A stretch of 64,000 bases of DNA, from contig OX597831.1 in assembly GCA_951406725.2 (NCBI GenBank), positions 34,286,001-34,350,000 on the forward strand. Reading direction: 5' to 3'. The DNA comes from Octopus vulgaris (Eukaryota). Under the pieces are notes generated by a model. That model did no database searches and was not told where the DNA came from. It saw only the letters and a program-made list of their open reading frames with translations. The translations under genes were made by a program, and so were the position numbers. Positions 4,645 to 58,380 of the stretch are shown here, piece after piece; position 1 is the stretch's first letter, and every line of letters starts with the position of its first letter.

Positions 4645-4701
4645 TTCGCTGATGAAGGCAATACATCACTCACAACCTAGAAACACAACCTTGTGTCCGG
4701 A
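4645..4701 (+). ncRNA. Type I hammerhead ribozyme motif
   Basis: ttcg-CTGATGA-agg...cct a-GAAA-cacaa cc ttgtg-TC-cgga. All core nucleotides present, GUC cleavage triplet, short stems I and II. Confidence 0.68.
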
Positions 4702-5892
4702 GACACAATGTATCTTCTTTTTTCAAGATTTATTTTTACTCTGTCAGCTGGTTTGTTTTTCTTTAACCTTATCCGCCAATAGTTGCTTTAAATAGCTATA
4801 GATATCCCTTTACTGCTCACCTTTCTTCTTCTATGATATCATATTGTTCGGCTGGTAAACAGCAAGTTTCTTGTAGGCTGTGAATAAAAAGCTTCTGTAG
4901 GTGTTGCAAAACCAGCTGTAAGTCTGTACTTTTAAAGGTCTACGGTAATTATATTCTCATCTCTTTTATCTTACTTTTTTTCCGTCATTCGACTGTCATC
5001 ATGGTGGGTCACCGCCTTGAAAAGTTTAATCGAACAAAGCGACCCTCGTATTAATTTTTGCTAAAAGTTAGATCTTATTCTATCCGTTTCTTTTGCAGAG
5101 CTGCTAGATTACCGAGACGTAGATAAAAGGACATCGGTTGTCAAGCGGTGAGGAGTACAAACACAAAGACATACATATACATATAAAGACATACAGGCGG
5201 AGAGATAGACAGATAGACAGACAGACAGACAGATATAGATAGATAGATAGATAGATAGATAGATAGATAGATAGATAGATAGATAGATAGATAGATAGAT
5301 AGATAGATATGTTTCTTTATTAGCCACACAGAGCTGCACACAGACAGGACAAAATTACAAGGTAGAGCTTTTCTTTTGGGGGTAAAAGAAGGGATCGTAA
5401 ATAGAAAGAAAGTGGACAAAAAAAGGGGGAGGGAAAGGAAAAAAATTGGATCAATAGGGATCGTTATCACAGAAATTTCAATATGAAGTGTAAAGGGGAG
5501 GATATGTGAGGTTTACCCGTGGAAAGAAAAGCCTACGGAAAAGACCACGGTAACCTCGAGATGGGTTCGAGGAGTTTTCACACAGATTCCGTCCACTAAT
5601 TTCAGTGAAAAGGTTGACTCGGGACTATAATAGAAGACTCTTGCCTATACTGATGAGCATTGCGACTGAACCCGAAACTTCGTGATTGCAAAGCAATCTT
5701 TCTATCCACACACACAGCTGTGCCTGATAAATTTCTTACCATTATTATGGTACATTTATGCGTTTTTGTTAATGTGTACGTTGTAGGAGAATGAATGTAA
5801 GTGAATGCTTGTGTGTGTGTGTGTGTGTGTTCTTTATCGATTGAGTGTCTCAATGAAAATTTTTATTCTCATACATTTTTTTTTTTCAACAG

Positions 5893-5978
5893 GCAAATGT
5901 TATATTTTTTATTAGCATCCTCTGGATTCTGATAACAAAACTGCGAATGACAAATACACCCGAAGCAACAGATTACAG
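5893..5978 (+). CDS. Class B1 GPCR exon: TM5-ICL3 (ANVIFFISILWILITKLRMTNTPEATDY-R)
   Basis: ttttttcaacAG acceptor and GTAAG donor; 86 nt, ends in phase 2. Matches CRF receptor '[29 protein letters not shown]'. Confidence 0.92.
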
Positions 5979-55113: not shown

Positions 55114-55862
55114 TCTTTATATATATAAAACTGAGAATGTGTGTCTATCTGTCTGTCTGTATGTCTGTCTGTCTGTGTGTTTCCCTAAAACTTGAGAACT
55201 ACACAACCAATTTCATTCAAATTTTACACATGCCTTACTTAGGGTCCATGTAGTTTTATGGGCAAAAAAAATGTTCAACTTCATGCCTAGAGCACGCCCA
55301 TAGCAATATCATATCTTCTCCACTATTTCAGTATTACGTGTTAAAAGTGAAACAAAAACGTGTCTCTATTTTATGTCAGATACTTTCACTTTAACAATAA
55401 AAATAATAATAACAATTGAATTATATGTAGTAAGTAATAGTTAAAATCAAACTAAAGTATAATATAATCGTAACATAACAAAAGTAAAAATAGCAATTGG
55501 TATAAAATTGCATCAATGATTTGAACTTGAATAAGTGGTTTCACATGAATGGGAACAAATTAAAAATAAAATTAGCGTGCAGAAATGGAATAGTTCAGAT
55601 GGATAATAAAAAATTAAATTAAAGAAAAGACTATTGTCTATAAAGTATACAATGTAGAGAAAAAAGATTTGAACACATGGAGGAAAGCTAACAATTCCAG
55701 TCTGTTATATATTTTGAGCATTGTTATCACTAGCGATATCAAGATATAACTTTGTATTTTGTATTTTATGTGTAGATGTATATATATAGATGTACACATA
55801 TATATACACATATATACATGCACTAGCACTATAACTCGGCTACGACGGGTCTTTAATGCTAG
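55114..55862 (+). mobile_element. Non-autonomous Helitron-like element
   Basis: 5' TC (A|TCTTTATATATATAAAA), (CTGT)n microsatellite near the 5' end, imperfect 3' GC hairpin actcg..cgggt, then CTAG|T. Confidence 0.72.
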
Positions 55863-57703
55863 TATATATATATATATATAAATGTATGAATGCGTTTGTG
55901 TAACGTATAAAGAAAGTTTATAAACAGGCCGAATTTAGCTAGCCCTCATTGATTTTCGAACTTAATAGGTTCTCATCAAAGGTGTCTATATCATTTTTAC
56001 CAATCCCAAGCATAAAAAGCAGCCATATATATACGTATGTATGTATTTATGTATGTATGGGTGGGTGTGTGTGTGTAAAAGTAAGATCCAAGGATTCAGG
56101 TGTAAGAATTTAGTAAGCTTTGCGCGGTCCATACATGGTATAAAAAGCAACTTTGAGGAACAATAGCAGTTTATTGGCATAGAAGGTAGCAAATATTTCT
56201 CATGTCGAAGCTGAAAAAAAATTTTATAGTATATATTATAATTGCGAACTATGAACTATAAAATGTATATTTTATAGTTCACAGTTAGCAACTAGGGTTG
56301 CTGTATATGCGAATATATATATATATATATATATGTAACGTGTTCATATATTATATTATAGCTGAAATTGAATTTGATATAATTTGAGTTTATGTTTACA
56401 TTCATATTTATTGAGTCCTTCAGTAAACGTTGCTTGAAATATGTGTTTATTCAAATTCCTGTTTGTTCTGGCAATAAATGAGTGAAGTACTATTTCAATT
56501 TACAATTCAAAAACTTCGAAAGCTCCTGAAATATAACATTGTAGAAACGACATTTCCATTTAAAAAAATAATAATCACTCGAAAAGATTTCGATAAATAT
56601 AACTTTATAAAGTGCCCATTTGTAAAATTAAATGCTATATTCAAAAATCATCTAAAATTAGCAACTAAACAATCTATCAATAACCAATTAGAAATTAATG
56701 CTGGTGACAATATCTGTTGTTAAAATCTCCAGACTCAAACCAGCATTAATATTTGAAGATATCTCCTCTCACTGTATCTCCCTCCGTGTATTTATATATT
56801 TCTCTTATATTTCACAGACTATGTCTCCCTCTCCCTTCTCTCTTTCTCTCTCTGTCTCACAGACACACATACGCCCACACAATATTTACACAAACAAATT
56901 GTATGAACAGTAGTAATTTACGTAAATAAAGACTACAGAATGATAAAAAGGGTATAATCAAATAGTTTGACAAGCAAATTAAACGCGGCCAAAGATGTAT
57001 GCATTAAAAATATACATTACTCAGCCGGGAAATGTATTTCAATTGGTGGAAAGACAAAAACGAAAGAAAAACTGTGCAAAAACGAAAGGCTTTTCTAAGA
57101 AAACTATAAGGTAAAGTGTAGGTGTATATGTATTGAACATCATGACTCACTCTCACTCAATTATACCTATCTATCTATCTATGTATAGCTAGCCATCTAA
57201 TTATCCATTTATCTATTTGTCTATGTAACTATCCATCATTTTGTCTCTCTCTCTCTCTCTCTCTCTCTCTCCCTATATATATATATATGTGTGTGTGTGT
57301 GTGTGTATGTATATATACCTTGCATATAAACCTATACATAAACATACATTTCCTACATTTGCATATATATATATTTATATATATATAAATATATATATGT
57401 GTGTGTATATATATATATATATATATATATAAATTTATACATATACATATATATACTTTTTGTATGCGTGTATGAGTGAGTGCGTACCCATGCTTGCTTT
57501 CGTGAGTGCACACGCGTGCATCTGAATGTGTGTGTAGCCATGTGTATGCATTAGCGCGCGCCCGCGCGGAATATAGGTAATGGCCTGGCAAAATCATTGT
57601 AAGAACTGAGTGGGGTTAAGGCTAGGCAATACTTCTATAAATTATATTCTGTGCAACTAAAATTTAATCCCGAAACGTTAGGAGTGGCTGTATAGTAAGA
57701 ATA

Positions 57704-58380
57704 GGCGCAAGAGTGGCTGTGTGGTAAGAAACTTGCTGCTCAGCCACATGGTTCAGGGTTCTGTCCCACTGCGTGGCACCTTGGGAAAGTATCTTCTACT
57801 ATAGCCTCGGCCCGACCAAAGCCTTATGAGTGTTATTTGGTGGACAGAAACTGAAAGAAACCCGTCATATATGCGCGTATATATATATATATATATATAT
57901 AACGGGAAGATTTACGAAAATAAACAAAAGACGAAAGTAGGTGGAGTACAAACAAACAAATGTATCAGTATGGCGCTCAGGAATAGAAATAGAACAAGTC
58001 TTTTACGTTTCGAGCCTACGCTCTTCGACAGAAAGATACAGAGAAAAAAAAACAAGGAGAGAAAAAAAAAGGAAATATATATATACATGCATATATGTAT
58101 GTATGTATGTATGTATGTATGAATGCATATATATATATATATATATATATATATATATATATATGCGTGTGTGTATGTATCTATTTGTGTGTTCGTGTTT
58201 GTTGCCCCACCATCGCTTGACAACCGATGTTGGTGTGTTTGCGTCCCCCGCAACGTAGCGGTTCGGCAAAAGAGACCGATAGAATAAATACTAGGCTTAC
58301 AAAGAGTTACTCCTGCGGTCGATTTGTTCGGCTGAAGGCGGTGCAACAATATGGCTGCAAATGACTAAAACAAGTTAAAG
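57704..58380 (+). mobile_element. SINE family A interrupted by the HHR-variant repeat
   Basis: Head 57704-57868 and tail 58180-58380, with a nested insertion in the internal (TA)n. Confidence 0.8.
57901..58075 (-). mobile_element. Short repeat with hammerhead-like variant core, inserted in the (TA)n of a SINE (also at 8122-8328 -, ~50700-50915 +, 1-50 + truncated)
   Basis: Near-identical to 8122-8290. Minus strand 58036-57999 reads tcttt-CTGTCGAA-gagc gtag gctc-GAAA-cg-TA-aaaga. Confidence 0.7.

Follow-up and report, generated by a model that had tools for sequence, protein, structure and literature searches.

Which sequences carry hammerhead ribozymes to the (TA)n tracts of the Octopus vulgaris genome? 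The question is raised by a stretch of 64,000 nt (assembly GCA_951406725.2, contig OX597831.1, positions 34,286,001 to 34,350,000; hereafter the window), in which an initial annotation, made from the sequence alone, had listed eight canonical type I hammerheads and six variant or degenerate sites. Our analysis suggests that these motifs are very likely the hammerheads of the pseudo-long terminal repeat (pLTR) 3' ends of many families of Penelope-like elements (PLEs), together with short units likely mobilized by them. Four families in the window, accounting for 8 of the 14 named sites, continue into open reading frames (ORFs) for a reverse transcriptase (RT) and a GIY-YIG endonuclease, two being of Hydra type and two of Neptune type; ORF links were also found for three further families (L092, L129, L147) in a random genome sample of 0.99 Mb. 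The association with Penelope that the initial annotation had proposed was borne out in this way. The motifs had also been placed in unrelated short elements, a description that did not hold, as most of those tested are 5'-truncated 3' ends of long PLEs.

Hammerhead motifs and (TA)n tracts in the window

The window, which is 64 kb of a 2.8-Gb genome, has 34% GC and is rich in microsatellites throughout. We searched it with a type I descriptor consisting of the core CUGANGA...GAAA...UH and stems I to III, with stem I open. This gave eight matches, seven at named canonical sites and a doubtful one at 41681, while two sets of 200 shuffles gave a mean of 0.08-0.11 and a maximum of 2. The remaining canonical site, 36740, was absent from these matches because its stem II loop is ~75 nt long; its reading as a broken core was an artifact of the limit on stem II length, and it parses once a length of 120 is allowed. 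With a second descriptor that allows this length and adds a palindrome and score filter, all eight named canonical hammerheads were parsed, compared with a mean of 0.02 and a maximum of 1 in 100 block-wise dinucleotide shuffles of the window. The canonical motifs are thus present at the positions first given, which are the low ends of stem I and accurate to 1 nt, at a density above that of dinucleotide-shuffled sequence. The six variant sites are real as well, being family variants or decayed copies, and one motif lies beyond the initial list:

4645-4701, plus strand: canonical hammerhead motif, single copy, 4-bp stem I
16956-17006, plus strand: canonical hammerhead, CUGAAGA, predicted to cleave after 17000; pLTR ribozyme of the 12692-17023 element
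19531-19573, minus strand: canonical hammerhead with stem III palindrome CAAUUG, parsed by the descriptor
19620-19662, plus strand: canonical hammerhead, identical in sequence to the 19531-19573 copy, parsed by the descriptor
36740-36854, minus strand: canonical hammerhead, CUGAGGA, 8-bp stem II, ~75-nt loop; member of a repeat family
37972-38059, minus strand: canonical hammerhead with a long loop II; member of a repeat family
40657-40699, minus strand: canonical hammerhead, stem III CCCGGG, in a ~357-nt unit
41180-41224, plus strand: canonical hammerhead, stem III CCCGGG, in a ~357-nt unit
57999-58036, minus strand: A6U core variant CUGUCGA, stem III CG, at a Neptune-type 3' end
8217-8264, minus strand: decayed copy of the A6U family with GAAA and stem II changed (initially 8222)
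50785-50826, plus strand: member of the CUGUGGA subfamily of the A6U family, with part of stem I missing
43311-43345, minus strand: A3-U8 hammerhead with core AUGAAUA at a Neptune-type end (initially 43310)
43444-43478, plus strand: inverted partner of 43311-43345 with U16.1 lost; the pair spans 43311-43478
48951-48998, plus strand: decayed copy of a U3-A8 family whose relatives read UUGAUAA, from alignment to L165 and L106
~42306-42343, minus strand: additional motif, a decayed U3.G8 copy whose relative L122 is canonical

For the 36740 family, 506 candidates were obtained, and the 40 that were scored gave 45 matches. The weakest case is 4645, which has no TA tract within 1.5 kb on its 3' side and may be a match by chance, an ancient remnant or a host ribozyme that has been retained. 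As had been anticipated, standard annotation misses these motifs. At the gathering score, Rfam gave no match of any family in the window, and when matches were ranked by E-value no hammerhead appeared among the best 150, which were dominated by matches of microRNA models to (TA)n and palindromes. The Rfam models miss these hammerhead forms, and an Rfam match is not a defining biochemical feature.

Most motifs had been said to lie near a (TA)n tract. As an undirected claim this is weak because TA tracts are everywhere in the window: tracts of at least 6 units lie within 300 nt of 53% of background positions (p = 0.02-0.06 for 13 independent sites), and tracts of at least 10 units within 300 nt of 43% (p = 0.003-0.014 for the same number of sites). 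The directional form is strong. A (TA)8+ tract lies within 350 nt on the 3' side of 13 of 15 sites and on the 5' side of 6 of 15, with a background of 33%; four site positions in this count are approximate, which leaves it unaffected, and two pairs are not independent. In the genome sample the figures are 21 of 26 on the 3' side versus 12 of 26 on the 5' side, with a background of 15% and with arrays and edge hits omitted. TA proximity is therefore informative only as a 3'-directional signal, and in this form, with 3' ends fixed at (TA)n, it agrees with the microsatellite targeting that had been proposed.

Elements that carry the motifs

Several of the motifs belong to larger features of the window:

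12692-17023, plus strand: 5'-truncated Hydra-type PLE, then (TA)n, with collinear copies at 95-98%
19349-19755, both strands: two 3' ends from a second Hydra-type family, inverted head to head and forming a palindrome
40657-41434, both strands: retrozyme-like unit of ~357 nt, 1.6 tandem units plus an inverted copy, from a 357-nt offset repeat

The first of these comprises, in order, an ORF remnant, a ~2.8-kb microsatellite-rich 3' untranslated region (UTR), the hammerhead and (TA)n. The RT/GIY-YIG ORF remnant occupies 12686-14205 and is frameshifted near 13543. Copies in L152, L153 and L169 are collinear with 12692-17023 over ~4.3 kb at 95-98% and finish with the 16956 ribozyme, which is therefore the 3' end of the element itself. 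The ribozyme adjoins the ORF in 18 of the 20 fetched stretches (the two are apart in L164, and L151 continues L150), and in the L156 copy, which has an open frame of 718 aa with YRDD and YIG motifs, the hammerhead core precedes the ATG by 176 nt. The stretch rich in (TATG/TA/TG)n at 14210-16950 is the element's own copied 3' UTR and not a host microsatellite. Most of the best-matching copies share with the window a 225-aa open frame (13531-14205), and therefore a frameshifted subfamily has amplified alongside copies with ~700-aa frames. A first look at the endonuclease region of this element gave 24,725 candidates genome-wide.

The protein of this element (P0001) carries DKT, RWR in place of RWK, a CxCX5C linker, CxxC and CxH; the ORFs of L255, from the second family, likewise read as Hydra. 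The nearest Atlas clusters of the Hydra-type protein carry GIY-YIG/RVT_1 families. A search of sequencing runs with the Hydra ORF listed none recorded as RNA. These motifs and Atlas neighbors, with references compared by eye, point to a Hydra-type assignment.

In the second family, 19437-19755 forms a 320-nt palindrome (99%). Only one arm of the 19349-19755 pair has a tail, of ~85 nt, and both arms end in (TA)n; other copies are equally asymmetric. The family has 976 whole-genome pattern matches, and its inverted pairs, up to 15 kb apart, enclose the ORF in L250, L251, L255 and L259. From the 20 best loci, 19531/19620 had appeared to be a fixed, non-autonomous palindrome of ~250 nt, a reading that we rejected since pairs 1-15 kb apart hold the ORF. 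The copies in L249-L260 also show internal tandem duplications of ~1.74 kb in the 3' UTR, and their RT and endonuclease are separated by an Asn-rich insert. PLE 3' ends are of two kinds, short or tailed toward the next ORF start (20 versus 12 ends). The hallmarks of PLEs are thus present: partial-tandem pLTRs, inverted 5' copies and an optional tail.

The A3-U8 core was found in 30 of 33 copies of the 43311/43444 family, which has 225 whole-genome pattern matches and in which a GIY-YIG/RT ORF ends ~300 nt upstream (L202-L208, L265, L268). The A6U family, with 16,446 whole-genome matches to its flanks, has an RT and GIY-YIG remnant upstream of its ribozyme in L262. Its core is 96-100% fixed outside position 7 and 97-100% at positions 3, 4, 5, 8 and 9, while position 7 reads A25/C20/G11/T44 (hand count); its copies also occur as ~205-nt head-to-tail dimers (L194). 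Pfam recognizes GIY-YIG and RVT_1 in the Neptune-type ORFs. The DKG motif and CGCPNCGTC linker of L265/L268 and the CSRPRCRTC linker of L262, that is, DKG and a CX2-5CxxC linker before GIY-YIG, suggest that both families are of Neptune type, with Nematis as the alternative.

The 40658/41181 unit is non-coding and has circularly permuted matches elsewhere (3520 candidates). As a non-coding tandem of 150-450 nt with a type I hammerhead, it appears to be a unit like those of non-LTR retrozymes. Similar arrays were observed outside the window. L031:1700-4900, a typical non-LTR retrozyme array, holds seven tandem units of ~480 nt; every unit has a canonical hammerhead, with a stem III capable of folding in the monomer. 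In L162:500-2150, beside a Hydra-type copy, four hammerheads that have stems of 7 bp and a long loop II are arranged inverted and in tandem at a spacing of ~480 nt. Canonical cores with stem II inserts of ~95 nt in L102 and L131 form one family and escape short descriptors.

Two palindromes of the window, 11927-12229 and 22365-22907, yielded no parsed hammerhead. The first (303 nt, 97%) ends in (TA)n, and 37 nt of it match the L031 unit at 89%; it is possibly an inverted end from a related family, with the ribozyme missing. The second is a near-perfect palindrome of 544 nt around (TA)n, with arms that match a dispersed repeat itself found in inverted pairs (L059, L172). A mariner-type transposase fragment lies at 28048-28560 on the minus strand (Pfam Transposase_1, E 2e-18).

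Genome-wide number and variation of the core

The genome sample consists of 99 stretches of 10 kb obtained from 100 random draws. Three of the positions were manually relocated to smaller contigs, and sampling is too sparse at some chromosome ends and among the smallest contigs. Canonical matches numbered 34 (36 with long loops) versus 0-2 in shuffles, which extrapolates to 96,000 in the genome (bootstrap 54,000-150,000). All core classes together gave 65 versus 1-3, or 178,000 (bootstrap 122,000-243,000), while decoy cores gave 0-1 matches. The sample holds 26 matches to six patterns for which the whole-genome counts predict 18. It thus runs high, and we therefore take ~10^5 as a fair figure. 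The whole-genome patterns set a floor of ~45,000, composed of 14,310 matches less 999 for the reversed-pattern control, 16,446, 87% of 15,231 (1,728 for its reversed control), 2,856 and 686. The 66 motifs of the sample fall into 28 clusters, and 7 of 42 canonical matches lie in an array. The window, at 8 per 64 kb (125/Mb) compared with 36 in 0.99 Mb, has ~3.5 times the density of the sample and twice its density of TA tracts. Both the very large genome-wide count and the multiplicity of families that had been predicted are therefore upheld, with at least ~45,000 motifs by patterns and ~10^5 by sampling.

Published hammerhead totals include 2,000 + 1,300 minimal hammerheads in Schistosoma, 4,000 in the coelacanth and 9,000 in Xenopus (PMC4209133), as well as 5,000 and, in the axolotl, up to 120,000 (PMC7229834), the last being of the same order as our estimate. 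In the giant squid, 235 hammerheads were found by Rfam (PMC6962438). We found no genome-wide census in the literature on octopus and cephalopod hammerheads. A 2026 repeat annotation of Octopus vulgaris reports 893 recently active, unclassified families of short interspersed nuclear elements (SINEs), and its main text makes no mention of ribozymes.

Features on which the search placed no constraint also suggest selection. The palindromic stem III noted for the window recurs genome-wide: among the first 100 whole-genome matches listed, the free 4-mer within a 6-nt stem III is perfectly palindromic in 67, compared with ~1 in 16 by chance (11 different palindromes, counted by hand with repeated copies of the same families included). 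With positions 3 and 8 left free, they form a Watson-Crick pair in 87 of the first 100 matches listed (77 U-A, 5 A-U, 4 C-G and 1 G-C, by hand count), and mismatched classes stay at shuffle level (7 in 0.99 Mb versus 1-6). A further 9 of these 100, on contig C1, are one identical 28-nt repeat that contains GAAA-CCGG-U and has 3-8 unpaired, which is either a non-ribozyme repeat or a different parse of the core. Stem covariation, which had been suggested from differing stems that still pair, was scored in sequence-based alignments of two families, one of them that of 40658/41181, and was exceeded by none of 500 shuffles in either, although it stems from few events. In 5 of the 8 canonical motifs stem III has a loop of 0-2 nt and cannot close a hairpin (36740 was not computed); as a duplex it has a predicted energy of -5.8 to -14.9 kcal/mol.

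Core variants are fixed in families and include all four Watson-Crick 3-8 pairs, A6U, and U4C as the majority form. In one family, whole-genome patterns give 2,856 matches with U4C versus 686 with U4, a minority that could itself have arisen through CpG decay from a C4 source; U4C occurs in five sample clusters, and the G3-C8 family is known from 4 sample copies. The A6U and U4C families are expected to cut slowly. U3-A8, A6C, viroid U4C and U10.1-U11.1 are known natural variants, described as rare and slower (PMC3088659, PMC7151607), whereas here such changes are fixed in families of hundreds to more than 16,000 copies. Our search of the literature on core variants returned U3-A8, A6C and viroid U4C among the natural forms and no A6U, A3-U8 or G3-C8 families; the main-text passages of PMC4209133 that we compared mention none of the G3-C8, A3-U8, U4C or A6U families. 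We provisionally regard the family-fixed A6U, A3-U8 and G3-C8 cores as new to the literature.

Role of the ribozyme and alternative explanations

A hammerhead at the tail of a PLE beside (TA)n has been published before, including in an Octopus Hydra family (Cervera and De la Pena 2014; Craig et al. 2021). The metazoan PLE hammerheads of the former study (PMC4209133) resemble ours in being type I, located in pLTRs and mostly in solitary truncated copies, in forming opposite-strand pairs 100-700 bp apart with a palindromic helix III, and in having an additional base where stem II begins, numerous families in each genome and the U3-A8 variant; their counts reach at most 9,000, compared with at least ~45,000 in Octopus vulgaris. 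In the latter (PMC8557442), Hydra-1_Obim of Octopus bimaculoides has a hammerhead and a (TA)n target, and P0001 resembles its protein when compared by eye. The Hydra clade, comprising PLEs with a C-terminal endonuclease (EN+), shares with our families DKT, RW(K/R), the CxCX5C linker, CxxC and CxH, a canonical hammerhead near the 3' end, the (TA)n target, tandem and inverted insertions and an optional tail. The published members described there are shorter than ~3 kb, while both families here have microsatellite-rich 3' UTRs of 2.8 to ~3.5 kb and ribozymes of different sequence; P0001 also has a GxKF/Y-like stretch, GFKS, unlike those members. Poseidon_Ac (Frangieh et al. 2024, PMC11167929) has an AT-rich target and a ribozyme near the ORF start, its tail arises from a pair of internal RT start sites, and its main substrate in vitro is uncut RNA; the elements here agree with this picture, most copies that reach the ORF start having kept the uncut ribozyme. 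Its tails are 30-40 nt compared with ~85 nt here, in other clades. Non-LTR retrozymes, which are non-coding tandem type I units of 170-480 nt (PMC7229834; preprint 10.64898/2026.07.22.740005), fit 40658/41181 and L031, whereas most window families are ORF-linked PLE ends. Less ordinary here are the scale and the family-fixed core variants.

Following the mechanism established for other PLEs (PMC11167929, PMC8557442), we propose that the RT-endonuclease would nick (TA)n and begin to copy just 3' of the ribozyme, from either of two internal sites, an inverted second copy often being added at insertion. Because reverse transcription would start 3' of the ribozyme, even the shortest truncated copy would keep it, and every insertion would carry a ribozyme that faces the TA tract, which would explain the density of motifs. 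Selection on the fold would act only in source elements, where the ribozyme probably acts on tandem or read-through transcripts, trimming them ~140-240 nt ahead of the ORF, the integrating RNA being mostly uncut. Cleavage is predicted to be slow and mainly in dimers; a loopless palindromic stem III pairs only between two copies, which would keep scattered single copies quiet. As to the role of the ribozyme, we lean somewhat toward slow trimming of tandem transcripts ahead of the ORF, assisted by dimer formation and probably by protein. An earlier candidate, prompted by L255, was that cleavage determines the 5' terminus of the RNA that integrates. Among 60 ORF-start copies (30 + 30), only the one in L255 begins at the predicted cleavage site, 46 run upstream through an uncut, intact ribozyme and 13 break downstream of it, although for several of these breaks it is the alignment that stops, in low-complexity DNA. 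We therefore find no support for the view that the ribozyme defines the integrating RNA.

Several observations weigh against our reading of the motifs as PLE hammerheads. The 46 uncut copies are one, and cleavage itself is a prediction from sequence. No ORF link is shown for 6 of the 14 named sites (4645, 36740, 37972, 40658/41181 and 48951), and Pfam and PDB searches with the Hydra-type proteins returned no match. The covariation shuffles ignore relatedness, and a handful of differences between subfamilies account for most of the two-sided changes (3 of 12 and 5 of 15 pairs). Moreover, the largest families include some, A6U and U4C, whose cores are expected to be slow.

The chief rival explanation is that the fold is kept as a protein-binding or ribonucleoprotein-assembly element beside the RT start sites, with catalysis dispensable or vestigial. 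The 16,446 copies of the A6U family, the excess of U4C over U4 in one family (2,856 to 686) and the retention of uncut ribozyme in integrated copies would suit such a role, as would the reports that ribozyme mutants had no effect on insertion in vitro (PMC11167929) and that Naiads have no hammerhead motif (PMC8557442). However, across the 28 clusters it is the catalytic G8, G12, GAAA, U16.1-H17 and the 3-8 pair that are conserved while the stems and N7 vary, and the ribozyme of Poseidon_Ac cleaves with protein (PMC11167929). We consider a mainly structural role rather unlikely.

It seems more improbable still that most motifs are non-LTR retrozymes that spread via circular RNA monomers released by ribozyme cleavage. 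The ~357-nt tandem and permuted unit of the 41181 family, which lacks an ORF, the seven ~480-nt units in L031 and the ~205-nt A6U dimers in L194 are what such spread would produce, but four window families run into PLE ORFs with 0.3-4 kb of unique sequence upstream, and with 7 of 42 random canonical matches in an array this explanation holds for a minority. Chance matches in AT-rich, palindrome-rich repeat DNA, for example MITE-like (miniature inverted-repeat transposable element) hairpins, are barely credible as a source of the motifs. Palindromes without a hammerhead do occur in the window (11927-12229, 22365-22907), 4645 is single-copy and the 28-nt repeat with 3-8 unpaired supplies 9 of the first 100 listed matches. 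For the set as a whole, chance is refuted by the excess over shuffles (8 versus 0.02 in the window, 36 versus 0-2 in the sample), over reversed patterns (14,310 versus 999 and 15,231 versus 1,728) and over decoy cores (0-1); it remains as an explanation for 4645.

Returning to PLE-borne hammerheads, we tentatively raise the possibility, which we regard as doubtful, that the genome amounts to a natural saturation library for the hammerhead core, with ~10^5 motifs in dozens of families and with amplifying lineages for each Watson-Crick 3-8 pair, for U4C and for a so far unreported A6U core; its A6U and U4C ribozymes would then cleave only conditionally, depending on the protein of the element, a partner copy or a particular metal, and PLEs would select for tuned cleavage over speed. 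If true, conditional cleavage by A6U and U4C would settle what the PLE hammerhead is for. The hammerhead load of Octopus vulgaris, which Rfam misses, approaches the largest total reported (axolotl, up to 120,000). Its 3' (TA)n signature, combined with the hammerhead, could classify short repeats such as the unclassified SINE families of this species, an overlap that is hypothetical. Matched natural pairs (A6/U6, U4/C4 and the four 3-8 pairs) offer a test of why PLEs retain a ribozyme that is dispensable for insertion in vitro.

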